DNA from: an uncultured Verrucomicrobiota bacterium
Lineage (GTDB): Bacteria > Verrucomicrobiota > Verrucomicrobiia > Limisphaerales > RI-55
NCBI GenBank assembly: GCA_964463815.1
Contig: CAYXDZ010000002.1
Coordinates: 1-36,972, forward strand
DNA length: 36,972 nucleotides
Direction of reading: 5' to 3'
Shown here piece after piece: positions 13,121 to 36,972 of the stretch; within the stretch, counting starts at the first letter, position 1; each line of letters starts with the position of its first letter. The notes under the pieces were generated by a model that saw only the letters and a list, made by a program, of their open reading frames with translations, did no database searches and was not told the origin of the DNA. The translations under genes and the position numbers were made by a program.

Positions 13121-13315
13121 TCCCGGGGGATGAACGGGGGCCTTTGAACCGCCAGGCCCGAAAGTGCGCTTATGGCCCGCCCCGAACGTCCTTCGTCAAC
13201 CCCACTTTCGTTCCCGGTCAAGCGCTGCGATTTGTAGTGAAACTTTTTTGGAAATGCACACCATCCGCACTGCTACCGGTTTTGGGCCGTGGTATTCCCC
13301 AAACCACCTATCAGC

Positions 13316-16300: not shown

Positions 16301-19300
16301 CGCATCCTGCCGGTCGTGGACACGACCCAGCCGCTCACCTTCGGCCAGGTCATCGAGCCGGCGATCACCTCGCCCGGGCAGCAGCTTGTTTACACGTTCA
16401 CCTTGAACGGACCGACCCGCGTCCAACTCGACAACCAGCGCAGCACGCCAAACCTCCGTTGGACGCTGGCCGACGCGGGCCGCACCTACGCGGCGAACAT
16501 CGGATTCAACAGCGACAGCTGGTACGTTTACGATTTGCCGGCCGGGAACTACCGACTCATCGTCAACACCGGCAACGACGCCACGGGCACGGCCCGTTTG
16601 CAGTTGCTCGACTTCGCCGCCGCCACGCCAATCACGCTCGACACGGTGCACAACGTTACGCTGGTTCCGCCCACCGAGGACCGGCAGTTCAGGTTCTCCG
16701 CCGCCGCCGGGCAGCGGGTGTATTTCGATCTTCTCAGCCAGAGCGGCTTCACCTACTACGGCTACCCCTTCTGGCGGCTGGAAGGTCCGGGCGGCAACGT
16801 CCTCCTTGAGGCGGGCGTCGCCGATGCCGGCCCGATTGTGCTGCCCGAGAACGGCAGCTACACACTGATCGTCCACGGCAACCACAACGAAGCCCAGCCG
16901 CAGGGGAACCTGAGCTTTCGCATCAACAACGCCCCGCTCACGACGTCGCCGCTGGTGCTCGATTCCCTGACCACGGGCGAACTGGCGATCGCGGGCGAGA
17001 CGGACCGTTTCGTGTTCACGCTCGCACAGCCCGCACAGGTGGTCTTCGACTCCCGCACGAACAGTCCGCTGCGGGTGTCGCTTTCCGGACCCGGCGGCCT
17101 GGTGGCCAACAACTGGGCTTTCAACAGCCTGGACGGCCCCAACCGCGACAGCTACCTGAACCTGCCGGCCGGCGATTACACGCTGGATGTCACCGGCTCG
17201 ACCGACGCCACGGGCGGTTACGCATTCCTGCTGCGGACGCTCGCCTCGGCGGAGGCGCTGGCGCTGAACACGACGATCAACGGCACGCTGGATCCGGCGA
17301 ACGCGACCCGGCTGTACCGCTTCACCGCCAGCGCCGGTGACCGGATTCGCTTCCAGGCACTGAGCCAGTCGGGCATGCCGAACGCCTATTGGCGGCTGCG
17401 CGATCCGCAGGGCGACCTGGTCTGGGGCAGTTACTTCAACGGCTCCGCCCACAGCAACCTGCTCGCGCGGACAGGCGCCTACACCCTGCAACTCGAGGGT
17501 TACCACGCCGAGGCTTCCGCCAGCGGCAGCTTCTCCTTCAGCTCGACGACGTTCGCACCCACGCCGCCACCCGGCCCCTCGGGCACGGCCATCACCCTCG
17601 GCGAAACCGTGAACGGCACGCTGCCGACGTCCGGCACGGTCCATTCGTTTGCGCTCACGCTCACCCAGCCAGGACGCCTCTATCTGGACTGGCTGCGGGC
17701 GATGGATGGCTTCTCATGGGCGTTGGTCGGACCCGGCGGCGTGGTGGTTCCCTCGACGTCGGTCTATGCGACGCTGAACCCGCCGCTGCACACGCGAGCG
17801 CTCCTGCCCGGCACCTATGAACTGCAGCTTACGGGCACGGTAAATCCCTACTCATTCCGCGTGCTCGATGTCAACGCCGCGCCGCTCTACACGCTGGACA
17901 CCGTGCACACCAATGAACTGGTGCCCGCCGCGGGCGCGAGTTTCCTGCGGGTGAACCTCACCGCGGGACAACGACTGTTCTTCGATCTGCTTTCCGAAAC
18001 GGGCCTGAACAGTTCCGCCACCAAGCGACTGGAGGACGCCGCCGGCAACCTGCTCTTCACCCTGGGTCATGCGGCCAACGCCGGACCGGTCGATGTCCGC
18101 GTCACCGGTGAACACCTCCTGAACTTCGATGGCCAGTGGGCCAACCCCGGCGCCACGGGTGCTGTCGCGTTCAATCTCCGCACCGTCCTGCAGCCGACCA
18201 GCCCGCTGGCGTTCGGCACGGTCCACTCGAACACCCTTGCCGGTGGCGGCGATGTTCATCAGTTCACCTTCACCCTTGCCGGCACCAACCGGGTGTTCTT
18301 CGATGCGTTGAACAATCCTCCGGGCGGCTGGAAATGGACGCTCGAAGGGCCCGGTGGCCCGCTCGTGCAAAACCGCGGCGTGGTCTCCTCGGACGGCGTG
18401 GACATTGGCGAACCCTCGCTCCTGCTCCGACCGGGGGATTATCGTTTGTCCGTTTCCAGCGACAGCGATCAGCTGATTCCCTTTGTCTTCCAGTTGTTGC
18501 GCGACGTGGATGCCACGCCCTTCGCAATCGGGAGCACGGTGACCACCAATCACGCGCCCGGCACGGCGACCAGCCTGTGGCGCTTCAGTGCCACCGCCGG
18601 CCAGCAGGTGTACTTTGACGCCGTTCCCGGCGGCTACACACCAAACCTGCGCATCTACTCGCCCGGCGGGAGCCAGTTCGCAAGTTTCGGCACCGGCAGC
18701 GATGTGGACACGTTTGCGCTCCCGGCGACCGGCGAATACCTCGTCGCGCTCGAAGGGCGCATCTACGAGGCGGCCGCCAGCGGCACCGTCAGCTTCGCCT
18801 TCCTGCCGATCTCCTATCCGACCAACACCCTCGCGCTCGACACCGTCGTTGCCGGCGCCATTTCCACTCCTGGCACGCGTCATCACTGGACCTTCTCCCT
18901 GGCGACACCCCGGCAGCTCTGGTTCGACACGCTCACCAACGCGCCGGGCGCGACCTGGACGCTGACCCGCGGCCAGAACGTTCTCGTCTCTGCGCGCGGC
19001 TTCCTCGGCTCCGACGGCATCGACATCGGCAACGCGCTACTGTCACTTCCCGCGGGCGACTACGTGCTGACGGTCAGTCTGGGCCTGGGCAGCACAGGCA
19101 CTTACGCGTTCCAATTGGTCAGCCCGGAGTCGACCACGCTCATGCAGATGAACGTAAACACTGCGGTCCTGCTCGACCCGCCGGTCGTGACGCGTCTCCT
19201 CGCATTCAACGAAACGGCCGGTGAACGTTTCTACTTCGACGGTCGGCCGCAGTCGGGAGCCGGCAGCGCCAACGCCCGACTCTACGATCCATTCGGCGCA

Positions 19301-22300
19301 AAGCTCCTCGACCTCAACACCACCTCCGACGCGCCCACGTTTGTACTGCCCTTCACGGGCACCTACACGTTCGCGATCGAAGGGCGCGTTTACAACTCCG
19401 GCCCCGGCCTCACCGCGAACTTCGCCCTGGTCAGCAATCCGCCCAAGCCGGTGGAACCGCTGTTTGAAAACACGTCGTTGCCGGACCTTGTCGTTGACAC
19501 TGTCAGCGTCACGCCGCCCGCCGGATTGAAGTCGGGCGATCCCTTCACGGTGAACTGGACGGTCCGCAATGCCGGCGCGCTCGCCACGGGCGGTTCCTTC
19601 ACCGACCGCGTCTCGGTGCGGAACACGGCCCTCAACCAGATCATTCTCAACACCACCCTCGCCTACAACCCGGCCGACGCGGGCAATGGTCCGATCGCTC
19701 CCGGCACCCAGCGCAACCGGCAACTGGCCCTCACCCTGCCCGCCGGTGCCAGCGGTGCCGGCTCGCTGGAGGTGACGGTGACGACCGACACGCTGAATCA
19801 GCTCGCGGAGTACAACATCGGCGGCACCGGCGAGTCGAACAACAGCAACTCGACCACCTTCAACAGCACGCTCGCGCCGTATCCGGATCTGCGGGTCATC
19901 GCCCTCGCCGCCAATCCTCCCTCGGGCTGGTCGCCGGGTAACGTCGTCGCCATCAACTGGGCCGTCACGAACAGCGGACCCGCCAACACCAGCACCTCAT
20001 GGGTGGACCGCGTCATCGTCCGCAATGACTCGCGCTCGGTTGTGCTGCTCACCACCAACGTCGTGCACGATCACGCCACCCTCGGCGGACTTGCGTCCGG
20101 CGGCCGGCGTGATCGACAGGCTTCATTTGTTGTGCCCGCCGGGTTGAATGCGCAGGGCCTGTTCTCGATCAGTGTCGAGACGGACGCGCTCGGCACGGTG
20201 GTCGAGAGCCAGCCCACGGATTCGGGCGAGGCCAACAATCTCACGACCATCAACGTTCTTTCCGCCCCCGACCTCACGGTTTCCGGCGTTCAGGTAGTGG
20301 CCACGCCGTCCGCCCAATCGGGTGCTTCGCTCGCGCTGCAATGGTCGTTGGAAAACACCGGCACGGCCCCGGCCGTCGATGCGTTCTCCGACCGGATCAT
20401 CGTCCGCAACCTCGACACCGCCGAGACGTTGATCAACACCTTCGCCGCCTACAATCCCGCCTCGCCGGGCAACGGTAGCATCGCTCCCGGCACCTCGAAG
20501 GCGCGCTCGTTGAACGTGAACCTGCCCGACGGTCCCCGGGCAGCCGGCAATCTCCAGATCGAGATCGCGGCCGACACCTACAATCAGATCGTGGAATTCA
20601 CCGCCGCCGGCACTTCCGGTGAGAACAACAACTCCGGTTTCGCCAACCTCACCACGACGCTTGCGCCGTATCCCGATCTCGTTGTGACCAACCTCGCCGT
20701 GTTGCCCGGCAATCCGCAGTCTGGTTCCGAGGTGACCGTGCGTTGGGAGGACTTCAACATCGGCATCGCGCCGGCCACCGCGAGCTGGCACGACCGGCTC
20801 GTTGTCGTGAACACGGGCTCGGGCGCCACGCTGCTCGACACCACGATCCATCATCCGACCACAACGCTCGGTGCGTTGACGAACGGTCTCACCCGGCTGC
20901 GCCAGTATGTCTGGCGCCTGCCCAACGGCGCGGCCGGCACCGGCAACCTCAGGTTCACGGTGACCGCCGACCACTTCAACGCGGTCTTCGAGCACAACCC
21001 CGGCGCCACCGCCGAGGCGAACAACGATCTCGCCGTCATCGTGCCCGCGACGCTCGCCGCCTATCCCGATCTGGAGATCGCCTCGTTCGACGTAGCGCCC
21101 GCGACCTACGAGTCCGGCCGGCTGTTGACCGCCGCATGGGCGGTGACCAACACGGGCACCGCGTCGGTTGCCGGAGATTTCTACGACCGCCTGCTGGTGC
21201 GCAACCTGTCTCTGGGCTCCACCCTGTTCGACCAGTCGTATTACCTGAACCCGGTGGCGGACACGAACGGCCCGATCGCTCCCGGCCAGTCCCGCCTGCG
21301 TACGGCAACCTTCCGGCTGCCCGACGGACCGGCCGGCACCGGCAGCATCGACGTGGCACTCTTTCTTGATTCGGGCAACCGGGTGTTCGAGTTCCGCGAA
21401 ACCGTGGATGCCGAGGCGAACAACACCACCAACCTGACCCGCAGTTCGACCGTCGCGCTTTACCCGGATCTCGCCATCAGCAACGTCACCGCGCCGCCCA
21501 CCGGTCTGCCTGGTCAGACGCTGCAGGTGAGCTGGACGGTGACCAACGGCGGCAGTGCCGGCACGCCGGCCGCCTGGACCGATCAGGTGTACCTGGTCGA
21601 CGACACCAATCCCAACGCGCCGCAGTTGATCGGCACGTTCAACTTCGCCGGCACGCTCGGTGTCGGTCAGTCGAGCAACGTCACCCAGACCGTGACGCTG
21701 CCGTACTTCACCGTCGGCACCCGGCGCCTTGCCGTTCGTGCGAACTCGGGCCCGGCGTTCTACGAGCCCAGCCTGGCGAACAACTTTGCGACGGCGGCCG
21801 CCACGATCTCGCTTTCGCCGCGTCTCGAGTTCACGTTGAACCGGACGAGCATTCCGGAGAACGGCGGCAGCGTCGTGGCCACCGTGTTGCGCAATGCGAA
21901 CACCACCAGCGATCTGACGGTCAGTCTCGCCAACTCCGACACCAACAGCCTGCTGGTGCCGACTCAGGCGGTGATCCCGGCCGGGCAGACATTCGCGAAT
22001 GTCACGCTCACAGTGCTGAACAACAGCCGGGTGGACGGCAATCGCACGGTCAACGTCACCGCCTCGGGCGCCGGCTACGCCGACGCCGCGGCCAGCCTCC
22101 TCGTGCAGGACGACGACCTGCCGACGCTCACGCTCCAGATGTCGCCGGGTCAGTTGATGGAGGACGCGGGACCGGGCGCGGCGATGGGTTACCTCACCCG
22201 CAACACGCCAACCAACGTGGCGTTGACGGTGAACCTGGTGAGCGACGCGCCGACGCGCTTGCTGCCACCGGCCTCGGTTACCATTCCCGTGGGGCAGTGG

Positions 22301-25300
22301 TCGTTTGCGTTCGATATCGCCGCTCCGGTGAACACCACCATCGAGGGCGCGCGCGACGTCCGCGTGCAGGCGACAGCACAGGGCTTCACCACCGGCAGCG
22401 CGATTGTGAACGTCCTCGACAACGACGCCCCCACGCTCGACCTCACGGTGGCGGCCGCCGCGATTGTCGAGGGCGCGGAGAGTCCGGCGACCTCCGGTCT
22501 GCTCACGCGGCAACCGCCATTGAACAGTCCATTGAGCGTCGTACTGGGCCAGAGCCTGCCCGGCCTGCTGTTGCTCCCGCCGGAACTGAACTTCGCCGCC
22601 GGCCAGTCCCAGCTTCCGTTCAACATCAGTGTCAGCGATGACCTGCTGGTCAACGGCACCCGCACGAACGAACTGATCGCCCGCATTCGCGGCGTCACCG
22701 GCGTGCCGATCACGAACGGCCAGGCGACCGCAACCCTGGTGGTGTTCGACAACGACGGCCCGTCGCTCACGCTCACGCTCGCCAGCGACGTCGTCAGTGA
22801 AACCGGTTCGGTCAACGGCACGGTCAGCCGCAACACCGGCACTGGTGGCGCGCTCACGGTCAACCTCGCGAGCAGCGACCCCGGCGAGGCGGTGCCCGCG
22901 TCGCCGACCGTCGTGATCCCGAACGGCGCGACCTCGGCGGCATTCACCGTGAACGGCGTGGTGGACGGACAGAACGACGGCATCCAGCCCGTGATCCTCA
23001 CGGCGACGGCGGCCGGGTTCAACAGCGCCACCGCGCGGTTGAACGTCTCGGACGTGGACCTGCCGGACCTTGCCGTGGGCGACATCATCGTACCGTCGTC
23101 CGGCCAGATCGACGCGAGGGCGAACGTCACGTTCACCGTCTCGAACTCCGGTCCGGTGCCCGCCTCCGGCACGTGGGTTGACCGCATCTTCATCTCTTCG
23201 GACAACCAGCTCGGCGGCGACATATTGGCCGGCGCGCACACGAACACGGCACCGCTGGCCAGTGGTTCGGCCTACGTCCGCACCGTGTCCATCACGTTGC
23301 CGGCGGATCCGGGGCTCTATCACATCATCGTGGTGACGGACGCCGACAACCAGGTCGTCGAGGGCAGCGAACGGAACAACGTCATTTCCATCGCCCAGAT
23401 CGACGTGCAACCGAACTACCGCGCCACGGTGGAAACGGCGATCGTCACCGCGCCGTGCGGCACATTGGTGCCGATCACCGGCCGGGCGTATTACCCGGAG
23501 GACAACTCGCCGGCCATCCTGAAGCCGGTGCTGGTCCGCATCCTCAACGGCGGCACGCGCCGGACCTACTCGGTCTTCTCGGACATCGACGGCACGTTCC
23601 GGCTGAACTTCACGCCGATCCCGACCGAGACGGGCGACTACCAACTCGCGGCCGATCATCCGCGGGTTTACCAGGACACGCCGCAGGACAGCTTCACGCT
23701 GCTGGGCTTCGGGCTCTCGGCGGAATACGCGTCGATGACGATCGTGCCCGAGACGCCGATCAGCGGGCAGATCACGCTGCGCAATGCGACCGGCACGACG
23801 CTCACCGGCCTGTTGTCCGCCGCAACCAACGCGCCGGCCGCGCTTGGACTCACGCTCAACGTGCCGGCGACGTTGCCCGGTCACGGCGAGGTCACGCTCG
23901 ACTGGTCGATGAACACGACGATCACAAACGCGGCCCGCGTGGTGTTCCCGGTGGTGATCTCGTCGGCCGAGGGCTGTCAGCGACAGGTGTTGTTCACCGT
24001 CCAGATCGCGCCATTGCGCCCGCAACTCGTGGCCGAGCCGGCCTTCCTCAATCGCGGCATGGTGCGCGGCGAGCAGTCGCTTGTGCCCTTCACCCTGCGC
24101 AACATCGGGGGCGTACCGACCGGTCCGTTGGACGTGCTGTTGCCGCCGTCGGAATGGCTGAAGCTCGCGGGCACGAACCGTTTGAACTCCCTCGAACCGG
24201 GTGCCAGCACGGTGGTGAATCTGTTGCTCGAACCAGCTTCGGATCTGCCGCTCATCATCCATGGCGGCAACCTCGCGATCAACGGCGCCAACACGTCGCT
24301 TGCGGTGCCGTTCCAGTTCCGCGCGATGTCCACTGCCCAGGGTGATCTCAAGATCACGGTCACCGACGACTACACCTATTACGTCGAGGGCAATCCGAAG
24401 GTCACCAACGCCGTGGTCACGCTCACCGACCCCTTCACCGGTCAGGTGGTGACCAACATGACCACCGACACCGCCGGCGAAGCGCGGTTCGTCGGACTCG
24501 TTGAAGGTCCGTACACGGTGGATGTCAGCGCGCCGAAGCGGAACACCTTCCGGGGCACGGCCACCATCCAGCCCGGCGCGGAGACGGTGCTCGAAGCCTT
24601 CCTCATCCGCCAGACCGTCACCTACCGGTGGTCGGTGGTGCCGGTCGAGATCGAGGACCGTTACAAGATCGTGCTCGAGTCGGTGTTCGAGACCGAAGTG
24701 CCGGTGCCGAACGTGATCATTGAGGAGCCGCACATCATGCCGCTGGTCTTCGAGGGCGAGACGAACCAGTTCGAGTTGAAGATCCGGAACGTCGGCCTGA
24801 TCGCCGCCGAGAACGTGACGATCAACGTGCCGTACGACGCGACCTACGTGATCCAGCCGCTGGTCACGAACATCGGGACGCTGCCCGCGATGAGCTCCCT
24901 GTCGATCCCGGTGTTGATCCATGAGCGGAGCACGACCGCGTCTCTGCTGCGGCTGGCCTCGCTGAATCCGCGATTGAACGGCGGCGACTGCGGCATCGAC
25001 ACCCTGCCGTGTCTGCCGAAGATCCCGTTGGGGGTACACTATTACTACACGTGCGGTCCGAACGGCGTTTACCAGCAACGTTCGGCCGACCTCTCGCCGA
25101 TCTGCGTGGCGAAGGATATCAAGGAATGTGTGGAAAAAACCCTGCAGTCGGCCGCCTCGTTGAATGCCTTCCGCAACGGCGGCAACGCGGCAAACTTCGC
25201 GTGTGACCTGGCCAAGGCGATCCTCCAATGCGGCGGCGTGAACCTGACGCCCTGCCAGAACGCCGCGTTCTCGATTGCCTGCGGGGCCGCCACGGGCGGC

Positions 25301-28300
25301 CTCGGTGGAGCGGCCAGCAACGGGCTCGGGCCGACGCTCAGTTGCATCTGCGATCTTGCGAAAGACTTCAGTGTCGGCATTCCTTCCTCACCGCCGAACT
25401 ACGGCACGGTCAACTACGTCAACGGCAGCCTCTTTGGCTCGCATCCGAGCGGCTTCAACGGCTACCCCTATTCGGTCGGCTGGTACATCGGCCCCGGCAA
25501 TTGCGCGTCGCCGGCGCCCAACAGTTTCACCGGCGGCTCCACGCCCCTGCCGCGCCTGATGAACGACGGCGTCTGCGCCCGGGTGCGGTTGCAGATCGAC
25601 CAGGAGGCGGTCATGACACGCGTCGCGTTCAAGGGCTCGCTCGAGATCGAGAACTCCGGCACTGACGCCATCACCGGCATCCGCGTGGACCTCGACGTCC
25701 GCGACGCGAACGACCATCCGGCGGGCGACCGTTTCGTGGTCCGGCCGCCGGTCGTCACCGACATGGGCGCGGTGGACGGCTCGGGTGTGGTCGGTGCGCT
25801 GGGCACCGGTTCGGCCGAATACCTGTTCATCCCCACCCGTGACGCGGCTCCGACCGCACCCCGCGTCTATCGCATTGGCGGCTCGTTTCGCTACCTCGAG
25901 AACGGCCAGGAGGTCGTGGTCCCGCTGCTCTCCTCGACCATCACCGTCTATCCCGAGGCGCGGCTGCAGTTGCACTACTTCCAGGCACGCGAGGTTTATT
26001 CGGATGATCCCTTCACCGAGGAAGTCGAACCCGCCGAGCCGTTTGCGTTGGGCATCATCGCCCGTAACGTCGGCGCCGGCGCGGCGCGGAACTTCCGTAT
26101 CACCTCGGCCCAGCCGAAGATCATCGAGAACAGCAAGGGCCTGCTGATCGACTTCAAGATCATCGGCAGCCAGGTCGGCACGAACGCCGCCGAGCCGAGC
26201 CTCACGGTGAATCTCGGCAACATCCCCGCCGGCCAGTCGCAGGTCGCCCAATGGCTGCTGACCTCGACGCTCCAGGGCAAGTTCATCGAGTACAAGGCGA
26301 CGTTCGAGCACGTGGACAACTTTGGTTCGACCAACCTGTCGCTCATCGACTCGGTCGAAATCCATGAGTTGATCAAGGCCGTGCTGGCGGATCGACCCGG
26401 CGACGATTTTGCGCCGGATTTCCTCGCGAACGATATCCCGGATCCCGACAGCCTGCCCGACATCCTGCATCTGAGCGACGGCTCGACCGCGCTGGTGCAT
26501 GCGCTGACCAACGGCGTCTTCTCCAACCAGATTGGCTCCGGTGCGCGCCAGGCGACGCTTACCTTCGCCCCGCAGGCCGGCTGGCAATACCTCCGCCTGC
26601 CGAACCCGGGCGCGGGCTGGCAATTGTTCCGCGTGGTCCGCTCCGACAACAAGGTCCTGAAGGTCGGCACCAACGTGTGGACCACCGACCGCACCTTCCC
26701 GACCGCGACCTACGGCACCATCCGCGAGCATCGCTTCCACCTGCTCGACCACGATTCGACCGGCAGCTACACGGTCTTTTACCGGCCGGTGGACACCGCG
26801 CCGCCGGTGCTCGTCTCGGTTGGGCCGGTCACGCCATCCTTCCAGACCGCGGCGGTGACTTCGGTCGAAGTGCTGTTCAACGAAGAAATGGATCTCGCGA
26901 CCTTCACGCCTGCGGATGTCACGCTCTCGCTCAATGGTGGCGGGAACCTGATCAACGGCGGCGTCACGATCACCCAGCTCGCCACGAACCGCTTCGCCAT
27001 CGGCAACCTCGCGGCGCTCACCGGAGCGGACGGCAATTATGAACTGTCCGTGAACGCCGCCGGCATCGAAGACTTCGGCGGCAACGTCGGCTCGGGCATG
27101 GTGGCTACGAGCTGGGCCAAGGGCTCGGTCGCTCCGGTCCTCACCGCGCTGGGACCGGTGTTGCCCAATCCGCGCAACCTGCCGGTGGATTCGCTGGAAC
27201 TTGCCTTCTCCCGCGCGATGAATCCGGCCACCATCAGCCGTGACGACCTGGTGCTCACCCGCAACGGTGGCGCCAGCCTGATCACGTCCGCCGTGCAGGT
27301 GCTGCAGACCGACACGAATCGTTTCGTCATCAGCGGTCTCGACACACTCACGCAACTGGCCGGAAACTACGTTCTTACCGTGAACGCGGCCGGCACGACG
27401 GACGCCGAAGGTATCGCCGGCACCGGCAGCCGTTCGACCACCTGGAGCATGGTCACGACCGGACCCCGCATTGCGTCGCTTGAACAGCCGGCGACCAATC
27501 CCCGGAACATCGTGGTCGCCAGCCTCGACGTCACTTTCGAGGCGCCGATCAATCCGGGCAGTTTCACCTGGCAGGATATCGCCCTGACGCGCAATGGCGG
27601 CCCGAACCTGCTCACCAGCGCGGTCACCGTCCAGCAGGTGTCGCCCACCGTGTACCGCATCGCCAATTTCAACTGGGTGATCGGCCAGGAGGGCGAATAC
27701 CGCTTCACGGTCACTGCCACCGGGATTCTGGATGCCGCCGGCAATGGCGGCACCGGTTCGGCCTCCGTATCGTGGAAGATGGACACCACCCGGCCGGGCG
27801 CCGCCTCGGCACTGGCGTTGACTCCCGATCTCGGCGAGTCCACAACCGATCGCCTGATTAACACGCTCGCGCCCACGCTCACCGGTTCTTTGCCCGAGAC
27901 CAACCTCACCGTCCGCGTAAAGAATCTGACGACGGGTCTCGATCTCGGTCCGGCCACGGTAACCGGTCAGAGCTTCAGCAAACTCCTTTCGCTGGCGACG
28001 GCGGGCGCTCATCAGCTCGAAGTGCGCACGGTTGATGCCGCGGGCAACACCTCGTTCCCCGACGTGCAGCTCGACCTGTTTGTGGACCTCACGCAACCGT
28101 CGGCCACCATGGTGCCGGTCGTGCCCAACGTCCGCAACACCGCGGTGCCTTCGGTCACCGTCACCTTCTCCGAGGCGATTCACGCGGCGAGCTTCACCCG
28201 CGACGACCTCACGTTGACCCGCCAGGGCGGCGCCAACCTGATCAACGCCGGTGTCAACGTTGCCAACGTCGTTTCCAACCAATGGCAGATCAGCGGCCTG

Positions 28301-29536
28301 ACGGCGCTCACCGATCTCCCCGGTGCCTACGTGCTTTCGTTGAACTTGGCCGGCATCACTGATCGCGCCGGCAACGCCGGCACCAACTCCGTCTCGGCCG
28401 GCTGGTCCCGCACCGGCGCCAACCAGCCGCCCACGCTCGCATTCATCGCCGATCGCAATGCCAAGGTTGGCGAACTGATCACTTTCACCAACGTCGCCAG
28501 CGATCCCGACGTCGGACAGCGGCTGACCTTCAGCCTGAACGTCGATGCGCCGGCGAACGCGCGGCTCGTCGCCACCAACGGCGCATTCTCGTGGACGCCC
28601 ACGCGCAGCCAGTCGCCGGGCCTGTACCCGATCATCGTCACCGTCACCGACGACGGCGTGCCGCCGGCCAGCGCCGCGCGGACGTTCGTCGTGGCGGTCG
28701 AGGACTACACCGAAACCCGGCTGGGAGAGACCGTGCTGCTCGCCGGTGAAAACGGGGCGTTGAACCTCACCCTCATCTCGACCGCCGGCCTGACGAACCT
28801 CGTCACGGAAGTCGCCGTACCGACCAACCGGATTGGCGCGCCGCAGCTCGGCGGGTTGAGCGCGCTGGTGGGCGCCTCGAGCATCCAGGAATTGGGCGAC
28901 GGCCGGTTCCGCGTGAGCGTGACCAGTCAGCCGGGACAATCGATCCGCGGTTCGAACGTGCTGGGCCAGCTCCAATTCACCACCGAACCCACGCAGAACT
29001 CCGCCTTCATCAAGGTGCCGCTGAGCAACGTCGCCGCCCGCCAGCCCGACGGCTCCGTGGTGGGCACGACATTTGTGCGCGACGGCCGGGTGGTGATGAT
29101 TGGCGGGCAACCCTTGCTGGAAACCGTGCGCACGACGGATAACTCCCGCTTCCTCCGCCTGTTCGCCCGCCCCGGCGACGCGCATGACCTGCAATTCGCG
29201 CCTGCTGTCACCGGTCCGTGGAGCGACGTGGAACGTCTGCGCTTCAGCGGCCGTGAGTTGTCGTTCGCCCCGCTGAACACGACCGGTAGCACATTCTACC
29301 GCCTCGCCTCCGTAGATACCTCGCTGCCGTTCTTCGAGATCCTGTCGGCCGACAGCGCGGGCATGGACGTCGTGTTCTACGCAGATCGCGGCCTGACCTA
29401 CGACCTGCAAACCTCCAGCAACCTGAACCTCCCCTGGACCACGCAGCTCACACAACCGATGAACAACCAGTTCCACGAACTGCGCCTCACCGTGCCCGCA
29501 AACGAGAACCGCTTTCTCCGCGCCCGGTCGCAATAA
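13316..29536 (+). CDS. Giant secreted multidomain surface/adhesin-like protein (about 5,406 aa)
   Basis: Single uninterrupted ORF; the track gives 13289-29536 from a GTG. I prefer the ATG at 13316, which gives MKTSLFCGGSASLPRGCRIGMVTATLLCSQLLFAQP, a signal-peptide-like N-terminus. Domain content is listed in the sub-features below. Confidence 0.9.
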   Translation: MKTSLFCGGSASLPRGCRIGMVTATLLCSQLLFAQPVYWDPAQGGNGHYYEVVVVPGGINFWEARLQASARGGRLASINSAAENEFVHALAAANTNAWWTDGTTTHGPWLGGFQADGSPEPTGGWGWIGGEPFSYTNWANGQPDNWANSENALHFWALGANNFAATWNDINGTAGSPRSYVLEVDITAATGWIARNAATDFSATLNPSAPWTHGYALNPGASFTAFGHATTAAGLQVWQRPGTSDPPSTVFNPTGSTSTPGTPVYAAGELHLHPGPTGEFAVLRFTAPVTGIYEINAAFQGADTVGTSTDVWVLSGTNEWFRGTVNGYGPASRRAYRTAVPLNAGANIDFAVGPNGTYFYDNTLVEVQISYRATTDAVSGTIAYAGEEDRYSFQLAQPATMYFDSRTSSSGLNWTLTGPPGTVVNVRGFGSSDADTSSDPLLRLPAGDYTLVIRGSGATTGAYEFVLLNLADATLITPATVIANHEFPRRTTDLYQFTANSGDVMSFDRLTLVNGGSPYWRLVDPYGKIVWATYFNDVNNVTLPATGTYTLLVEGTISGGSATSYSFQLLPQGGTPSPAFTGMPLALGTGVTNVIDTVGATNAYTFTLAQPTRLYYDSLTNNGSLRYTLFGPGGTVATTRGVSGGANSDLHYAPAGDYQLVISAVSSYTGSFAFRLLDLATATPITPGTVVNGTTTPASGLRMYRFSATPGTRLFFDALSQSGYTYFGNAYWSLVDPYGNVLFADNGFGDRATTTLTGNGDYTLWVAGGDHEPGAQGNFSFNLVPATETSTALVLNTAYSGSVATPGQQHLHTFSLAESKRVYFQSLTNQPSIRWTMTGPGGVVQSAIAFNTGGWLAYTLAPGDYTITVFANGDLTGGYAFKLVDYATATSITVGPTINGTVTPAASINIHELTLTAGDRLFVDALSQSGFTYYGTAFWRLEDPEGNTVFLPDINLHWDRGFSDIGPFTVPRTAAYQLLIGGGVQETQAGGNYSFRILPVVDTTQPLTFGQVIEPAITSPGQQLVYTFTLNGPTRVQLDNQRSTPNLRWTLADAGRTYAANIGFNSDSWYVYDLPAGNYRLIVNTGNDATGTARLQLLDFAAATPITLDTVHNVTLVPPTEDRQFRFSAAAGQRVYFDLLSQSGFTYYGYPFWRLEGPGGNVLLEAGVADAGPIVLPENGSYTLIVHGNHNEAQPQGNLSFRINNAPLTTSPLVLDSLTTGELAIAGETDRFVFTLAQPAQVVFDSRTNSPLRVSLSGPGGLVANNWAFNSLDGPNRDSYLNLPAGDYTLDVTGSTDATGGYAFLLRTLASAEALALNTTINGTLDPANATRLYRFTASAGDRIRFQALSQSGMPNAYWRLRDPQGDLVWGSYFNGSAHSNLLARTGAYTLQLEGYHAEASASGSFSFSSTTFAPTPPPGPSGTAITLGETVNGTLPTSGTVHSFALTLTQPGRLYLDWLRAMDGFSWALVGPGGVVVPSTSVYATLNPPLHTRALLPGTYELQLTGTVNPYSFRVLDVNAAPLYTLDTVHTNELVPAAGASFLRVNLTAGQRLFFDLLSETGLNSSATKRLEDAAGNLLFTLGHAANAGPVDVRVTGEHLLNFDGQWANPGATGAVAFNLRTVLQPTSPLAFGTVHSNTLAGGGDVHQFTFTLAGTNRVFFDALNNPPGGWKWTLEGPGGPLVQNRGVVSSDGVDIGEPSLLLRPGDYRLSVSSDSDQLIPFVFQLLRDVDATPFAIGSTVTTNHAPGTATSLWRFSATAGQQVYFDAVPGGYTPNLRIYSPGGSQFASFGTGSDVDTFALPATGEYLVALEGRIYEAAASGTVSFAFLPISYPTNTLALDTVVAGAISTPGTRHHWTFSLATPRQLWFDTLTNAPGATWTLTRGQNVLVSARGFLGSDGIDIGNALLSLPAGDYVLTVSLGLGSTGTYAFQLVSPESTTLMQMNVNTAVLLDPPVVTRLLAFNETAGERFYFDGRPQSGAGSANARLYDPFGAKLLDLNTTSDAPTFVLPFTGTYTFAIEGRVYNSGPGLTANFALVSNPPKPVEPLFENTSLPDLVVDTVSVTPPAGLKSGDPFTVNWTVRNAGALATGGSFTDRVSVRNTALNQIILNTTLAYNPADAGNGPIAPGTQRNRQLALTLPAGASGAGSLEVTVTTDTLNQLAEYNIGGTGESNNSNSTTFNSTLAPYPDLRVIALAANPPSGWSPGNVVAINWAVTNSGPANTSTSWVDRVIVRNDSRSVVLLTTNVVHDHATLGGLASGGRRDRQASFVVPAGLNAQGLFSISVETDALGTVVESQPTDSGEANNLTTINVLSAPDLTVSGVQVVATPSAQSGASLALQWSLENTGTAPAVDAFSDRIIVRNLDTAETLINTFAAYNPASPGNGSIAPGTSKARSLNVNLPDGPRAAGNLQIEIAADTYNQIVEFTAAGTSGENNNSGFANLTTTLAPYPDLVVTNLAVLPGNPQSGSEVTVRWEDFNIGIAPATASWHDRLVVVNTGSGATLLDTTIHHPTTTLGALTNGLTRLRQYVWRLPNGAAGTGNLRFTVTADHFNAVFEHNPGATAEANNDLAVIVPATLAAYPDLEIASFDVAPATYESGRLLTAAWAVTNTGTASVAGDFYDRLLVRNLSLGSTLFDQSYYLNPVADTNGPIAPGQSRLRTATFRLPDGPAGTGSIDVALFLDSGNRVFEFRETVDAEANNTTNLTRSSTVALYPDLAISNVTAPPTGLPGQTLQVSWTVTNGGSAGTPAAWTDQVYLVDDTNPNAPQLIGTFNFAGTLGVGQSSNVTQTVTLPYFTVGTRRLAVRANSGPAFYEPSLANNFATAAATISLSPRLEFTLNRTSIPENGGSVVATVLRNANTTSDLTVSLANSDTNSLLVPTQAVIPAGQTFANVTLTVLNNSRVDGNRTVNVTASGAGYADAAASLLVQDDDLPTLTLQMSPGQLMEDAGPGAAMGYLTRNTPTNVALTVNLVSDAPTRLLPPASVTIPVGQWSFAFDIAAPVNTTIEGARDVRVQATAQGFTTGSAIVNVLDNDAPTLDLTVAAAAIVEGAESPATSGLLTRQPPLNSPLSVVLGQSLPGLLLLPPELNFAAGQSQLPFNISVSDDLLVNGTRTNELIARIRGVTGVPITNGQATATLVVFDNDGPSLTLTLASDVVSETGSVNGTVSRNTGTGGALTVNLASSDPGEAVPASPTVVIPNGATSAAFTVNGVVDGQNDGIQPVILTATAAGFNSATARLNVSDVDLPDLAVGDIIVPSSGQIDARANVTFTVSNSGPVPASGTWVDRIFISSDNQLGGDILAGAHTNTAPLASGSAYVRTVSITLPADPGLYHIIVVTDADNQVVEGSERNNVISIAQIDVQPNYRATVETAIVTAPCGTLVPITGRAYYPEDNSPAILKPVLVRILNGGTRRTYSVFSDIDGTFRLNFTPIPTETGDYQLAADHPRVYQDTPQDSFTLLGFGLSAEYASMTIVPETPISGQITLRNATGTTLTGLLSAATNAPAALGLTLNVPATLPGHGEVTLDWSMNTTITNAARVVFPVVISSAEGCQRQVLFTVQIAPLRPQLVAEPAFLNRGMVRGEQSLVPFTLRNIGGVPTGPLDVLLPPSEWLKLAGTNRLNSLEPGASTVVNLLLEPASDLPLIIHGGNLAINGANTSLAVPFQFRAMSTAQGDLKITVTDDYTYYVEGNPKVTNAVVTLTDPFTGQVVTNMTTDTAGEARFVGLVEGPYTVDVSAPKRNTFRGTATIQPGAETVLEAFLIRQTVTYRWSVVPVEIEDRYKIVLESVFETEVPVPNVIIEEPHIMPLVFEGETNQFELKIRNVGLIAAENVTINVPYDATYVIQPLVTNIGTLPAMSSLSIPVLIHERSTTASLLRLASLNPRLNGGDCGIDTLPCLPKIPLGVHYYYTCGPNGVYQQRSADLSPICVAKDIKECVEKTLQSAASLNAFRNGGNAANFACDLAKAILQCGGVNLTPCQNAAFSIACGAATGGLGGAASNGLGPTLSCICDLAKDFSVGIPSSPPNYGTVNYVNGSLFGSHPSGFNGYPYSVGWYIGPGNCASPAPNSFTGGSTPLPRLMNDGVCARVRLQIDQEAVMTRVAFKGSLEIENSGTDAITGIRVDLDVRDANDHPAGDRFVVRPPVVTDMGAVDGSGVVGALGTGSAEYLFIPTRDAAPTAPRVYRIGGSFRYLENGQEVVVPLLSSTITVYPEARLQLHYFQAREVYSDDPFTEEVEPAEPFALGIIARNVGAGAARNFRITSAQPKIIENSKGLLIDFKIIGSQVGTNAAEPSLTVNLGNIPAGQSQVAQWLLTSTLQGKFIEYKATFEHVDNFGSTNLSLIDSVEIHELIKAVLADRPGDDFAPDFLANDIPDPDSLPDILHLSDGSTALVHALTNGVFSNQIGSGARQATLTFAPQAGWQYLRLPNPGAGWQLFRVVRSDNKVLKVGTNVWTTDRTFPTATYGTIREHRFHLLDHDSTGSYTVFYRPVDTAPPVLVSVGPVTPSFQTAAVTSVEVLFNEEMDLATFTPADVTLSLNGGGNLINGGVTITQLATNRFAIGNLAALTGADGNYELSVNAAGIEDFGGNVGSGMVATSWAKGSVAPVLTALGPVLPNPRNLPVDSLELAFSRAMNPATISRDDLVLTRNGGASLITSAVQVLQTDTNRFVISGLDTLTQLAGNYVLTVNAAGTTDAEGIAGTGSRSTTWSMVTTGPRIASLEQPATNPRNIVVASLDVTFEAPINPGSFTWQDIALTRNGGPNLLTSAVTVQQVSPTVYRIANFNWVIGQEGEYRFTVTATGILDAAGNGGTGSASVSWKMDTTRPGAASALALTPDLGESTTDRLINTLAPTLTGSLPETNLTVRVKNLTTGLDLGPATVTGQSFSKLLSLATAGAHQLEVRTVDAAGNTSFPDVQLDLFVDLTQPSATMVPVVPNVRNTAVPSVTVTFSEAIHAASFTRDDLTLTRQGGANLINAGVNVANVVSNQWQISGLTALTDLPGAYVLSLNLAGITDRAGNAGTNSVSAGWSRTGANQPPTLAFIADRNAKVGELITFTNVASDPDVGQRLTFSLNVDAPANARLVATNGAFSWTPTRSQSPGLYPIIVTVTDDGVPPASAARTFVVAVEDYTETRLGETVLLAGENGALNLTLISTAGLTNLVTEVAVPTNRIGAPQLGGLSALVGASSIQELGDGRFRVSVTSQPGQSIRGSNVLGQLQFTTEPTQNSAFIKVPLSNVAARQPDGSVVGTTFVRDGRVVMIGGQPLLETVRTTDNSRFLRLFARPGDAHDLQFAPAVTGPWSDVERLRFSGRELSFAPLNTTGSTFYRLASVDTSLPFFEILSADSAGMDVVFYADRGLTYDLQTSSNLNLPWTTQLTQPMNNQFHELRLTVPANENRFLRARSQ
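13450..13870 (+). other. C-type lectin-like domain (within the giant protein)
   Basis: HYYEVV...INFWEARLQASARGGRLASINSAAENEFV...WLGG...W.WI.GEPFSYTNWANGQPDN...ENALHFW...WNDINGT. This is the classical CTLD motif order (WxxA...LASI.S..E..F, W.G, F.NW..GEPN, WND). Confidence 0.8.
14436..19440 (+). repeat. Array of 16 PPC-like (pre-peptidase C-terminal type) beta-sandwich domains arranged as 8 tandem A/B di-domain units of about 620-650 nt
   Basis: Unit starts lie near 14436, 15085, 15710, 16346, 16966, 17603, 18221 and 18845. Type A consensus is G..D.Y.FTLAQP..vyFDS.TN...L.WTL.GPGG.V......... L.LPAGDYTL.V.g..d.TG.YAF.LLDLA.A. Type B consensus is TPIT..T..NGT..PA....YRF.A.AG.R.fFD.LSQSG..Y....WRL.DP.GN.....LP..G.YTL...G...E....G..SF. 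The repeats have diverged at the DNA level. Confidence 0.7.
19478..21800 (+). repeat. Six tandem CARDB-like domains (about 130 aa each)
   Basis: Starts lie near 19478, 19876, 20261, 20663, 21055 and 21455. Each begins (A)PYPDL.V, then carries W.V.N.G, then [WF].DR..V.N, and ends E.NN (GESNNSN, GEANNLT, GENNNSG, AEANNDL, AEANNTT, SLANNFA). Confidence 0.7.
21806..23057 (+). repeat. Four tandem Calx-beta-like domains
   Basis: Roughly 100-aa units, each ending in an acidic boundary: LLVQDDDLPTL, VNVLDNDAPTL, LVVFDNDGPSL, NVSDVDLPDL. Internal patterns are I.E.GG....V.R and IPAG.T.A.F.V. The canonical DY-containing Ca-site motif is not evident, hence 'like'. Confidence 0.5.
23060..23400 (+). other. 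Seventh CARDB-like domain
   Basis: LPDLAVGDIIVPSSG...VTFTVSNSGPVPASGTWVDRIFISSDN...VVTDADNQVVEGSERNNV. Confidence 0.65.
24341..24600 (+). other. Carboxypeptidase-regulatory-like (CarboxypepD_reg-type) beta-sandwich
   Basis: GDLKITVTDD...NAVVTLTDPFTGQVVTNMTTDTAGEARFVGLVEGPYTVDVSAPKRNTFRGTATIQPG fits the V.D..G.P...A.V.l......tTD.~G.F.f..L..G.Y.v.v.a.Gy pattern. Confidence 0.55.
24977..25590 (+). other. Cys-rich island of the giant protein
   Basis: About 13 Cys in roughly 200 aa (GDCGIDTLPCLPK...YTCGPNG...SPICVAKDIKECVEK...NFACDLAKAILQCGGVNLTPCQNAAFSIACGAA...LSCICDLAK...GNCASP...GVCARV). The remaining 5,200 aa or so are almost Cys-free. Confidence 0.8.
26798..28410 (+). repeat. Four SbsA-type Ig-like domains plus one Big-like domain (27780-28087)
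   Basis: Units start near 26798, 27125, 27450 and 28088. They share V.S..V.F.E.m.p.[ST]F...D[LI].LTRNGG.NLI...V.V.......f.I.gL..LT...G.Y.L.vnA.GI.D..GN.G. Confidence 0.6.
28421..28706 (+). other. Cadherin-like / putative Ig (dystroglycan-type) domain
   Basis: NQPPTLAFIADRNAKVGELITFTNVASDPDVGQRLTFSLNVDAPANARLVATNGAFSWTPTRSQSPGLYPIIVTVTDDGVPPASAARTFVVAV. The typical Q.L.FSL...P.GA.i....G.F.WTP......G.Y...V.VtD.G.P pattern is present. Confidence 0.7.
28707..29100 (+). other. Cohesin-like beta-sandwich (tentative)
   Basis: GETVLLAGENGALNLTLISTAGLTNLVTEVAVPTNRI...GRFRVSVTS...GSNVLGQLQFTTEPTQNSAFIKVPLSNV. The pattern resembles cohesin-type modules. This is a weak motif-level call only. Confidence 0.3.
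29101..29533 (+). repeat. Duplicated C-terminal module of about 70 aa (also found once at the C-terminus of the 1,029 aa protein)
   Basis: Copy 1: LRLFARPGDAHDLQFAPAVTGPWSDV...GSTFYRLASV. Copy 2: VVFYADRGLTYDLQTSSNLNLPWTTQ...NENRFLRARSQ. Compare LELRGFPGRRYRLEQSTDFSDWSPV...GDRQFLRAIKLVE at 33735-33944 on the minus strand. Confidence 0.6.
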
Positions 29537-29625
29537 GCTATAGCACCAACCTGCCGGCAAAGTGGCTTGCCTCGTTACGTTGGGTGGCCAGGACGCAGAA
29601 GCGCACAGTCTTAAGTGAAGCGGTC

Positions 29626-31188
29626 CTATAGACGCTCACTTTGCCCCAGTTGTTCCTCGATTGCTGCGGCTATCGCGGCCACCAGTTGGCGGACCTGCTT
29701 CGGCGTCGTGCAGTAGGGAGGCATCAGCACGACCATGCTGCCGATCGGGCGAGTGAGCACGCCGCGCTTCGCCAGCGCTTCGCAGACGCGAATACCGGCG
29801 CGTTCGGCGAGGGCGAAGGGCTTTCTCGTGCGCCAGTCCTTCACCAGTTCGATGCCGGCGACCAACCCGGTTTGCCGGATGTCGCCGACCTGCGGGAGCG
29901 ACCAGAGCGCTTTCAGCTCTTCGCGGAGATTGTGCTCCAGTTGCGCGCGTTGCTGGAGGGAAGCCGCGCTTTGCAGCAGCTCCAGACTCGCCAGGCCGGC
30001 GGCCGCACCGAGCTGGTTGCCGGTGTAACTGTGACCGTGGAAGAAGGTCTTGAACTCCTCGTAGTCGCCGAGAAAGGCATCGAAGACCGCCTGCGTCGTC
30101 AGCGTGGCGGCCAGCGGCAGGTAGCCGCCGGTGAGACCTTTGGCGAGACAAAGGAAGTCCGGCTGCACGCCTTCGAGGTGCGAGGCGAACAAGGGTTTCG
30201 GGTTTCGGGTTTCGGGTTTCGGGTCGTGAGTGACAGCCCTGCCGAAGCCGGTCATGACTTCGTCCGCGATCAGGAGCGCGCCGTGGCCACGGGTGATTTC
30301 CGCGACGCGGCTCAACCAACCCGCCGGTTGCGGGATCAGTCCCGCCGCGCCTTGCATCAACGGTTCGAACACGAAGGCGGCGTGCGGTTCGCCGCGTTTC
30401 GCCTGTCGGGCGCACGCCTGCTCAACTTTGCCAACACACTCCCAGTTGCACTTGCGGTAGTCGCGGGCGTCGGCCCGTTCCGGCTTCGCGCGGTTGAACG
30501 GACAACGGTAACAATACGGAGCCATCACGCGGTCGGTCTTGAACAGCATTCCGCCGTAGGCTTTATGGAACAGATCAATGTGCCCGAGGCTGACCGCGCC
30601 GATGGTGTCACCGTGATAGGCGCCCTCCAGGGAGAGAAAGCGCGGTTTCGACTTCGGCCCGCGGGTACGGCGGGTGAATTCGTAGGCCAGCTTGAGCGCG
30701 ACCTCGAGCGCGGTGGAGCCGTCGTCGGAGTAGAAGACTTTGGAAAGTTTCGAGTTTCGAGTTTCGAGTTTCGAGTTGGGCACCGCAGCGCCGCCAAGCG
30801 GTAGGGCGAGGCTCCTGCCGAGTGTTGCAACAGATCTAGTTTGGGCTCCGCGGGAGCGTCGCCCTACCAACCAGGTAGGATTCGCGGATTTCACTAATTC
30901 CGCCGCCAGCAAACTGGCCGGTTCATTCGCCAGACCGAGTGCGGAGCTGTGGGCGACCTTGCCGAGTTGTCGTTTGATCGCCGCATTGATCTTCGGGTGA
31001 TTATGGCCGTGCAGGTTGGTCCAGATTGAGGAATTGCCGTCGAGGTAGCGCCGGCCGTGCTGATCTTCCAGGATCGCCCCCTTGCCGCGCATGATCACGA
31101 TCGGTTCGCGGCGCAGCCAGTCGCGCATCTGCGTGAACGGATGCCACACATGCGTGTGGTCGAGCTGGGCGAGCGAGTGGAGGGGCAT
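29626..31188 (-). CDS. bioA: Adenosylmethionine-8-amino-7-oxononanoate aminotransferase with two in-frame insertions
   Basis: 520 aa. HVWHPFTQM, SSIWTNLHGHNHP, VFYSDDGSTALEVALKLA, LIADEVMTGFGR...LFASH and LCLAKGLTGGYLPLAATLTT (PLP Lys) are all BioA/class III aminotransferase hallmarks. Extra segments lie at about 30750-30876 and 30190-30230. Confidence 0.9.
   Translation of the reverse strand: MPLHSLAQLDHTHVWHPFTQMRDWLRREPIVIMRGKGAILEDQHGRRYLDGNSSIWTNLHGHNHPKINAAIKRQLGKVAHSSALGLANEPASLLAAELVKSANPTWLVGRRSRGAQTRSVATLGRSLALPLGGAAVPNSKLETRNSKLSKVFYSDDGSTALEVALKLAYEFTRRTRGPKSKPRFLSLEGAYHGDTIGAVSLGHIDLFHKAYGGMLFKTDRVMAPYCYRCPFNRAKPERADARDYRKCNWECVGKVEQACARQAKRGEPHAAFVFEPLMQGAAGLIPQPAGWLSRVAEITRGHGALLIADEVMTGFGRAVTHDPKPETRNPKPLFASHLEGVQPDFLCLAKGLTGGYLPLAATLTTQAVFDAFLGDYEEFKTFFHGHSYTGNQLGAAAGLASLELLQSAASLQQRAQLEHNLREELKALWSLPQVGDIRQTGLVAGIELVKDWRTRKPFALAERAGIRVCEALAKRGVLTRPIGSMVVLMPPYCTTPKQVRQLVAAIAAAIEEQLGQSERL
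30193..30224. repeat. Heptanucleotide tandem array (GGGTTTC)x4 plus a partial unit, inside bioA
   Basis: Read directly from the sequence. On the coding strand it is CCGAAAC x4, translated DPKPETRNPKP. Confidence 0.95.
30746..30777. repeat. Heptanucleotide tandem array (AGTTTCG)x4 plus a partial unit, inside bioA
   Basis: Read directly from the sequence. On the coding strand it is AACTCGA x4, translated PNSKLETRNSKL. Confidence 0.95.
30800..30868. repeat. REP/MITE-like inverted-repeat hairpin element embedded in-frame in bioA
   Basis: Arms GGTAGGGCGAGGCTCC (30800-30815) and GGAGCGTCGCCCTACC (30853-30868) are reverse complements at 15/16 positions, with a 37-nt spacer. The element is translated as LVGRRSRGAQTRSVATLGRSLALP. 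Confidence 0.8.
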
Positions 31189-36821: not shown

Positions 36822-36972
36822 CAGGCTGCCTGCCCCCCGTAATTCTCCATGGGGTCTGTCTTCCACGGGCGGCAGCTTGCCGGCTGGGCTTCAGCCCAGC
36901 AAGACGGCAGTTCGCACAGGGTGCGATCAGAAGTGGCGGTCAGGAAAGTTGTGGAGGTGAGTCATTTTGGCC

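Follow-up and report, generated by a model that had tools for sequence, protein, structure and literature searches.

What is the role of the non-repetitive center of a giant bacterial surface protein that lies between long arrays of repeats? This question is raised by a stretch of 36,972 nucleotides (nt) from an uncultured Verrucomicrobiota bacterium of the Limisphaerales (assembly GCA_964463815.1, contig CAYXDZ010000002.1, positions 1 to 36,972 of the forward strand), referred to here as the window. The giant gene in this window is a single open reading frame (ORF), 13289-29536 (+), which encodes 5,415 amino acids (aa), and residue n of the protein begins at nt 13289 + 3(n-1). A preliminary description had singled out positions 23401-26797, corresponding to aa 3372-4503, as a core with no recognizable family and as the candidate functional heart of the protein. 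Our analysis showed that this core is a conserved three-part cassette, consisting of an array of beta-sandwich domains (CoreN), a cysteine-rich spacer, and a second beta-sandwich unit (CoreC). CoreC and the spacer are covered by no curated family in Pfam or NCBIfam, and the cassette was absent from the full-text literature searched.

The repeat structure of the giant was assessed by BLAST of the protein against itself in tiles of 120 aa (E < 1e-3). Most flanking tiles had 1-10 internal repeat matches, and those beginning at aa 3301-4401 had none, so the earlier statement that the sequence stops being repetitive here was borne out. The four peptides quoted in the preliminary description were all located, beginning at aa 3375, 3572, 4099, and 4339. 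The region had also been described as holding long unassigned stretches, which was correct for aa ~3880-4503 but not for the N-terminal half of the core, which is recognizably beta-sandwich. For aa ~3880-4503, searches with tiles and with the whole core gave no Pfam family at E ≤ 10 and no meaningful NCBIfam family, and phmmer and profile searches gave no PDB sequence match.

CoreC (aa 4094-4500) is a unit of ~405 aa comprising three beta-sandwich domains, designated D1 to D3. Alignment of 95 homologues to the giant by BLAST gave sharp boundaries, at 4092/4094 and ~4499, which were seen in ~90 homologues. The AlphaFold2 model of CoreC, based on an alignment of 59 sequences, was all-beta with a predicted local distance difference test (pLDDT) value of 87.9 and a predicted template modeling (pTM) score of 0.84. 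Since this pTM was reached for three domains together, CoreC is predicted to form a rigid unit and not a loose string of domains. D1 (25568..25954 (+), aa 4094-4222) is a beta-sandwich with a long N-terminal A-B hairpin, which carries C4096 and the invariant or near-invariant polar residues Q4105, R4111, and N4122. D2 (25955..26323 (+), aa 4223-4345) is the most conserved domain, with 30 of its 123 positions conserved at 95% or more, and contains the motifs YFxxRDVYSDDPFT, EPxEPF, NxGxGxAxN, TSxQPxIxENxKGLLIDF, and ATFEH. D3 (26324..26788 (+), aa 4346-4500) is a larger beta-sandwich with an Asp-rich loop, DDxxPDFLxND..D.D.LPD, which includes the invariant D4373 and D4377. The conservation of CoreC was well above that of the flanking repeats, with 45-60% identity across phyla and more than 45 positions, many of them polar, conserved at 97% or more.

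No Pfam family matched CoreC in the giant, none was common to the 59 members of the alignment, and a search of the CoreC profile against all PDB sequences returned only noise (E > 0.1). At the structural level, the Foldseek matches of CoreC in the PDB had template modeling (TM) scores of at most 0.36 and were generic two- or three-domain Ig-like structures, including integrin legs, PapD-like chaperones, pilins, the SPD2 domain of CEP192, and transglutaminase beta-barrels. The top match in BFVD was a DUF11 protein (TMq 0.27). A second AlphaFold2 model, covering 1,031 residues (aa 3480-4510), was all-beta except for one short helical stretch in the spacer, and its Foldseek matches (TM ≤ 0.35) were ASH, MG, and Ig arrays from ciliary central-apparatus proteins, A2M/TEP/CD109, contactin, titin, and a TIE protein. 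The "processing or toxin-like" activity envisaged earlier found no support, since both models were all-beta and matched only Ig-like, ASH/PapD-like, MG, and DUF11 arrays; judging by its predicted fold, the core is non-enzymatic. At the fold level, the core consists of more beta-sandwiches and is thus largely assignable to Ig-like or MG folds, whereas CoreC and the spacer have no annotation at the level of families, and unique elements remain in the form of the cysteine-rich spacer, an invariant lone cysteine, and the densely conserved polar loops of D2. The possibility that D1, D2, and D3 are diverged copies of the giant's own CARDB repeats was rejected (hhalign probability < 2%). They also showed no mutual relation by hhalign, the exception being a weak signal between N2, one of the CoreN domains, and D1.

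CoreN (aa 3372-3885) consists of five beta-sandwich domains, N1 to N5, of which only N2, N3, and N5 are mutually related. N1 (23402..23728 (+), aa 3372-3480) contains C3390 and weakly resembles CarboxypepD_reg in Pfam (aa 3409-3464, E 0.004), with 17.9 bits against a cut-off of 32.3. N2 and N3 (23729..24340 (+), aa 3481-3684) are paralogous NEW3/CARDB-like sandwiches (hhalign probability 72% for N2 and N3, and 90% for N3 and N5); C3563 lies in N2, and N3 gave a sub-threshold NPCBM_assoc/NEW3 match at aa 3603-3651. The next domain, N4 (24341..24616 (+), aa 3685-3776), is a CarboxypepD_reg or prealbumin-like sandwich that passed the threshold for PF13620 at aa 3705-3769 (nt ~24401-24595), with 36.1 bits as a tile and 47.8 bits within the whole core (cut-off 32.3). 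This is the single carboxypeptidase-regulatory-like sandwich that had been recognized at 24341-24600 before, and weaker beta-sandwich signals lie around it. N5 (24617..24943 (+), aa 3777-3885) begins with the junction VTYxWxVVPxEIEDRY, part of the highly conserved N4-N5 link AFLxRQTVTYxWxVVPxEIEDRY, and continues as a CARDB-like sandwich. Its match to CARDB (PF07705) at aa 3811-3859 covered half of the profile and reached 23.4 bits with the whole core, compared with a cut-off of 22.7 and with 21.5 bits as a tile. Consequently, the CARDB repeat taken earlier as the last one and as the border of the core has a marginal successor inside it. In the AlphaFold2 model of aa 3480-4510, aa 3480-3880 were all-beta with a pLDDT above 90. 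Among the 134 representatives of the family, N1 was matched in 87, N4 in 102, and N5 in 103.

The spacer (aa 3886-4093) connects CoreN to CoreC and comprises a mini-domain followed by a flexible low-complexity linker, with 12 cysteines in total. The mini-domain (24944..25294 (+), aa 3886-4002) holds nine of them, had no Pfam match, and was modeled with moderate confidence as a beta-hairpin with four short helices (aa 3912-4002, the helices at aa 3944-4002). The linker (25295..25567 (+), aa 4003-4093) is rich in G, S, P, N, and Y, contains the other three cysteines, and had a pLDDT of ~30. A Pfam scan of four spacers from the family found nothing. The giant has 18 cysteines, three of which lie in the signal-peptide region, and the other 15 are all in the core, namely C3390, C3563, the twelve of the spacer, and C4096. 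Across the family, spacers account for 11.5% of the length but for a median of 70% of all cysteines. The spacer count was even in 66 of 89 proteins and, where the cassette is split into two genes (see below), was 16, 12, 13, and 18 in the tails of the upstream proteins, which suggests that the spacer is internally disulfide-bonded. Measured from N5 to D1, the spacers fell into two main classes of sequence and length, with a median of 383 aa for 83 members and a median of 225 aa for 11 members, including the type found in the giant.

A search with the CoreC profile, counting one protein per 50%-identity cluster, matched 3,761 proteins at E ≤ 1e-3 and 2,405 at E ≤ 1e-30. When one genome for each GTDB species was scanned by motif and tblastn, 532 CoreC loci were located. 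Most of these loci were in Verrucomicrobiota, with others in Planctomycetota, Armatimonadota, Cyanobacteriota (Calothrix NIES-4105, Okeania), and Proteobacteria (Pseudorhodoferax spp., Variovorax boronicumulans, Falsiroseomonas bella, Gallionellaceae, Thiobacillus). Culturable members include Pseudorhodoferax, Variovorax, Falsiroseomonas, Calothrix, and Limisphaera. The nearest relatives were one metagenome-assembled genome (MAG) of Verrucomicrobiales (93%) and several MAGs of Limisphaerales (77%). The tail behind the module measures 916 aa in the giant and ~915-940 aa in several Verrucomicrobiota relatives, including one of the 77% Limisphaerales MAGs (L009), and an orthologue whose tail is likewise 916 aa long occurs in Limisphaerales MAGs. 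Several genomes contained 3-4 paralogues. In one Limisphaerales MAG with at least four family copies, two paralogous giant genes (L027 and L058) are convergent and adjoining (JBGARF010000001.1, 445658-483026), and another MAG had at least three copies; these numbers indicate that the family has expanded within genomes.

The composition of the cassette was constant across these members. D1, D2, and D3 occurred together in all 134 representatives, and in all ~100 representatives with ~700 or more residues before the module, N3, N4, and N5 preceded CoreC in the same order; the cysteine-rich spacer was likewise upstream of CoreC in all ~100 representatives with enough upstream sequence. The flanking arrays differed, with lectin and PPC domains in the giant, RTX, Calx-beta, and subtilase domains in Calothrix, and LRR/PKD domains or a beta-helix elsewhere. 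The Calothrix member, which combines RTX repeats, six Calx-beta domains, and a subtilase, is named "hypothetical protein" in GenBank. With variable flanks around a fixed core, the core is the constant part of the family. Furthermore, no recurrent family of downstream ORFs was found across 80 loci, and the cassette thus appears self-contained. The proposal that the core is the functional heart of the giant was therefore upheld in so far as it is the evolutionarily constant, family-defining part, and the enzymatic, toxin, or thioester core was not borne out.

This constancy bears on one possible explanation of the core, namely that it is structural filler made of further Ig-like stalk domains and conserved only as the ancestral part of the gene. 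Such a role is suggested by the generic beta-sandwich nature of all modeled domains and by the NEW3/CARDB-type paralogy of N2, N3, and N5. We nevertheless consider it unlikely, because conservation far exceeds that of the flanking repeats, the domain order is fixed, the three CoreC domains are rigidly packed in the model, a cysteine in CoreC is invariant, and the unit persists through gene fission as an adjoining pair, as described below.

The nature of the conserved residues points in another direction. The invariant or near-invariant polar residues of D2 are D4239, D4240, T4243, E4247, N4260, S4273, Q4275, and N4281, which partly lie in loops with a pLDDT of 72-84, lower than in the surrounding strands, and those of D3 are D4373, D4377, S4396, and D4487. 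CoreC might accordingly be a ligand-binding module, adhesive or self-anchoring, in which the polar loops of D2 and the Asp-rich loops of D3 make up a binding pocket for some conserved ligand, for example a glycan of the cell envelope, the D3 loops probably binding Ca2+ and the cysteine being accessory. The concentration of invariant Asp, Thr, Glu, Asn, Ser, and Gln in less rigidly modeled loops of the most conserved domain, together with the two invariant aspartates of the D3 loop, would fit this explanation, and in giant adhesins of the RTX and Bap types the ligand-binding region usually resides in non-repeat domains. On the other hand, the varying flanks already hold binding domains (C-type lectin, PPC, LRR), so that a universally conserved ligand would be needed; no carbohydrate-binding module or lectin family was matched by sequence or fold; and both the invariant lone cysteine and the gene fission pattern are left unexplained. 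We therefore regard ligand binding as a serious but rather improbable main function.

About one eighth of the representatives and many matches of the first search were proteins of 700-1,900 aa with CoreC directly after a typical Sec signal peptide, as in the junction ...LFAQ/EEQGVCARVR. In four of the five stand-alone loci examined (L001, L002, L004, and L006), the upstream gene, coding for a large protein, ended in CoreN and a tail rich in Cys and Gly, and was followed by a gene for a signal peptide, EEGVCARV..., and CoreC. The two genes abutted or overlapped by 1 nt. The C-terminal part of the upstream protein was homologous to aa ~3230/3480-3930/4085 of the giant, and the split point corresponded to the low-confidence linker of the spacer (aa 4003-4093). 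This pattern of fusion and fission argues that the two halves work together physically. In another locus (L003, 1-14258), on a 1.23-Mb long-read contig, the orthologous giant gene was called as five genes (2863+, 652, 98, 612, and 819 aa); the breaks are very probably frameshift errors and not a true split, and fragments of this kind make stand-alone module proteins seem more numerous in databases than they are.

The surroundings of the stand-alone genes varied. In an Armatimonas MAG, the tightly packed operon of the split pair extends downstream (L004, 13216-16341) with two small PEP-CTERM-type proteins. It also encodes a 173-aa protein in which a CxxC motif (CGCQAC) resembles that of thioredoxin, and a 509-aa protein with a GSCGC motif and no Pfam match on record, which we take to be possibly DUF1573/ASH-like. 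The split pair in L002 likewise has a PEP-CTERM protein downstream (10647-11213). P0088, the stand-alone CoreC protein that diverges most, is encoded in L005 (12360-22304) and is followed by a gene with a transglutaminase core (Cys protease-like) and a beta-helix giant exceeding 3,500 aa.

The cysteine at the start of CoreC, C4096 (codon TGC, 25574..25576 (+)), lies in its first strand at the boundary between the linker and D1, within the opening motif G-[VI]-C-A-[RKQ]-V-[RK]-[LI]. An equivalent cysteine was present in 270 of the 270 sequences covering this position, and CoreC typically contained exactly one cysteine across the family. In at least 15 stand-alone homologues (for example, P0023, P0024, P0054, P0235, P0113, P0159, and P0232) it was the only cysteine after the signal peptide, so that an intrachain disulfide is impossible there. 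Pairing of C4096 with a spacer cysteine within the chain was therefore rejected, also because the spacer count is mostly even. In an exported protein, a cysteine that is never substituted and remains unpaired can be expected to have a chemical role, for which an intermolecular disulfide, another cross-link, a metal ligand, and a nucleophile are the candidates.

Several known roles of such a cysteine were tried and rejected. A lipoprotein cysteine was dismissed because C4096 is internal in the giant, its equivalents in the stand-alone proteins lie 2-10 residues past the predicted signal-peptidase I site, and the lipobox [LVI][ASTVI][GAS]C does not fit, positions -3 to -1 being E/G/D, G, and V/I. 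The sulfatase formylglycine site C-x-[PA]-x-R was excluded by R, K, Q, or H, and never P or A, at position +2. For Hint or intein-like autoprocessing, the cysteine is present, but D1 lacks a conserved TxxH, and no Hint structure was among the best 50 Foldseek matches of each search. The thioester signature CxEQ, raised in the preliminary description, was found nowhere in the 5,415 aa by a regular-expression search for C.EQ, and TQ.A occurred in the whole giant only at aa 4562 and 4688, both outside the core. A zincin motif HExxH was likewise rejected, since the segment is predicted to form a beta-strand, and the family consensus IHELxH at aa 4358-4363 has a variable Glu and reads IHELIK in the giant.

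With C4096 as a nucleophile, CoreC could be a module for self-processing or covalent chemistry, acting either as a thioester-like warhead in covalent adhesion or by autoproteolysis at the linker/D1 boundary; the latter would yield, post-translationally, an equivalent of the split genes. Autoproteolysis is known in beta-sandwich contexts (ZU5/FIIND, GAIN). The absolute invariance of the cysteine, with a conserved G-[VI] on its N-terminal side and A-x-V on its C-terminal side, would agree with this, as would the histidines 4341, 4359, and 4484, which are conserved at 91-94% beside invariant Asp, Glu, and Gln, and signal-peptide cleavage in the split forms, which places the N-terminus 2-10 residues before the cysteine. 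However, the core lacks CxEQ and TQxA, no TED, Hint, or Ntn fold appeared among the Foldseek matches listed, and the histidines are less conserved than the cysteine. The HELxH-like string does not help either, given its predicted strand conformation and the Lys in place of its second His. The residues preceding the cysteine were modeled as disordered (pLDDT 45), which makes a strained scissile bond unlikely. Taken together, we judge self-processing to be quite unlikely.

The lone invariant cysteine and the same three histidines might alternatively form a Cu or Zn site with a redox or metal-sensing function, and metal sites are common in beta-sandwiches such as cupredoxins and CopC-like proteins. 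This seems very improbable, because 6-9% of the members have N, Q, R, K, F, or Y in place of the histidines and none has lost the cysteine, and because no cupredoxin or CopC-like match was obtained.

Based on the anatomy, boundaries, and conservation of the cassette, the fission and fusion of its genes, and the unpaired status of its cysteine, all demonstrated above, we tentatively favor a docking function. The cassette may serve as a junction hub that joins the variable N-terminal binding arrays to the C-terminal Ig-like stalk. CoreC would dock on a partner, which could be the CoreN or spacer of its own chain, that of a separately exported upstream protein in the split systems, or that of a second copy. 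The putatively exposed thiol of C4096 at the linker/D1 boundary would then make an intermolecular covalent link, most simply a disulfide. This proposal is possible, with a confidence short of even.

Several results weigh against the docking hub. The pTM of the 1,031-aa model was only 0.57, so docking is not demonstrated by it. The parity of the cysteine counts in the tails of the upstream split proteins (16, 12, 13, and 18) does not reveal a consistent single odd cysteine. The divergent stand-alone locus L005 has no CoreN neighbor. Finally, the invariant polar residues of D2 and D3 (the eight of D2 given above, together with D4373, D4377, and D4487) are not explained by a pure docking or disulfide role and suggest a ligand or metal site. 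In a broader formulation, the cassette would be a previously undescribed covalent-coupling or self-processing unit that uses a single invariant extracellular cysteine. Such a unit would cross-link giants to one another or to the partner half, carry a thioester-like warhead, or cleave the chain at the flexible linker; we consider it doubtful.

In the giant itself, a Sec-type signal peptide is followed by a C-type lectin domain, PPC-like repeats, six CARDB domains, four Calx-beta-like repeats, one further CARDB domain, the core, Ig-like repeats, He_PIG, and a C-terminal domain. A Pfam search of the whole protein identified Lectin_C near the N-terminus, CARDB repeats at aa ~2065-2830 with the further one at aa 3257-3371, and Big_5, Big_13, Big_12, and He_PIG beyond aa 4504. 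The four repeats of ~105 aa at aa 2830-3256 (window 21776-23056), which separate the CARDB block from the last CARDB domain, look Calx-beta-like, and Pfam gave just faint FixH and LapA matches for them; the Calothrix homologue has its six bona fide Calx-beta domains at the corresponding place. At the C-terminus (window 29260-29533), a beta-rich domain of ~90 aa is followed by a short motif, ...[FY][FY]R[ALV]xx, which is common to many family members (representatives P0119-P0232) and may be a sorting or secretion signal; in the giant it reads NRFLRARSQ. No PEP-CTERM, LPXTG, or T9SS-like tail was present.

No operon partners of the giant were found in the window, where its neighbors are housekeeping genes. 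Two other genes, neither adjoining the giant gene, probably encode secreted proteins, namely a subtilase with a fervidolysin-like prodomain (6656-8122 (-)) and a 1,044-aa protein with a DUF1565/right-handed beta-helix (33732-36866 (-)). The GC skew was -0.04 to -0.14 along the giant gene (window 14001-30000) and ~0 to +0.08 elsewhere, which presumably reflects the codon and amino-acid composition of the Thr/Ala/Pro/Gly-rich repeats and not a replication signal.

Among the genes of environmental bacteria, those for giant surface proteins belong to the least understood, and they are usually annotated as nothing more than strings of Ig-like repeats. For a very large family of them, this study identified the constant element and set exact limits for three newly defined domains, namely CoreN, the Cys-rich spacer, and CoreC. 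The natural gene fission points to an interaction between the halves, and the invariant unpaired cysteine allows function to be tested directly at a single residue. Should this cysteine act in covalent assembly or adhesion, it would represent a new building principle for the cell-surface fibers of diderm bacteria, and if the cassette is a covalent unit, its mechanism would be common to thousands of proteins in Verrucomicrobiota, Planctomycetota, Armatimonadota, Cyanobacteriota, and Proteobacteria. Even if the cysteine has no such role, the result is a well-delimited domain family for Pfam and InterPro.

How does the cassette compare with known systems? In alpha-2-macroglobulin, TEP, and CD109, as in the core, long arrays of beta-sandwiches are combined with a flexible variable middle segment, and Foldseek listed A2M, A2ML1, TEP1r, CD109, C5, and ECAM at E-values of 1e-7 to 1e-9 (TM 0.07-0.14). 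Since ASH, Ig, and cadherin arrays scored as well or better, this similarity to MG domains is generic. Unlike alpha-2-macroglobulin and TEP, the core has no CxEQ (GCGEQ), no helical thioester domain (alpha/alpha toroid), and no CUB domain, and its conserved cysteine is at the start of a beta-strand. The Gram-positive TIE adhesins are likewise surface proteins of Ig-like domains, and both they and the giant may use covalent chemistry via a conserved cysteine. A Bacillus anthracis TIE protein was found at Foldseek rank 32, with a match to generic Ig repeats only (TMt 0.16), and in contrast to these adhesins, the core lacks both TQxA and a TED fold, and its first and last strands carry no conserved Lys/Asn or Thr/Gln pair.

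Adhesins of the LapA, SiiE, and MpIBP types follow the same logic as the giant, in that a huge exported protein carries repeat arrays around a unique region. Their unique region is lineage-specific and ligand-binding, whereas in the family of the giant the unique region is constant across phyla and the flanks vary; they are exported by a C-terminal type I secretion system signal and the giant by an N-terminal Sec signal peptide. The closest relatives by fold are the arrays of CARDB, NEW3 (NPCBM_assoc), DUF11-CLIPPER, and ASH/PapD-like domains in giant bacterial surface proteins, which share the fold class of N2, N3, and N5 and probably of D1 and D2, and ASH-domain arrays and a DUF11 protein were the best Foldseek matches of the core. 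In contrast to those arrays, D1, D2, and D3 are undetectable by the corresponding profiles and form a fixed rigid unit that has a lone cysteine and invariant residues of its own and is always coupled to CoreN and the spacer. The cassette is thus an unannotated variant within the known giant surface proteins built from beta-sandwiches.

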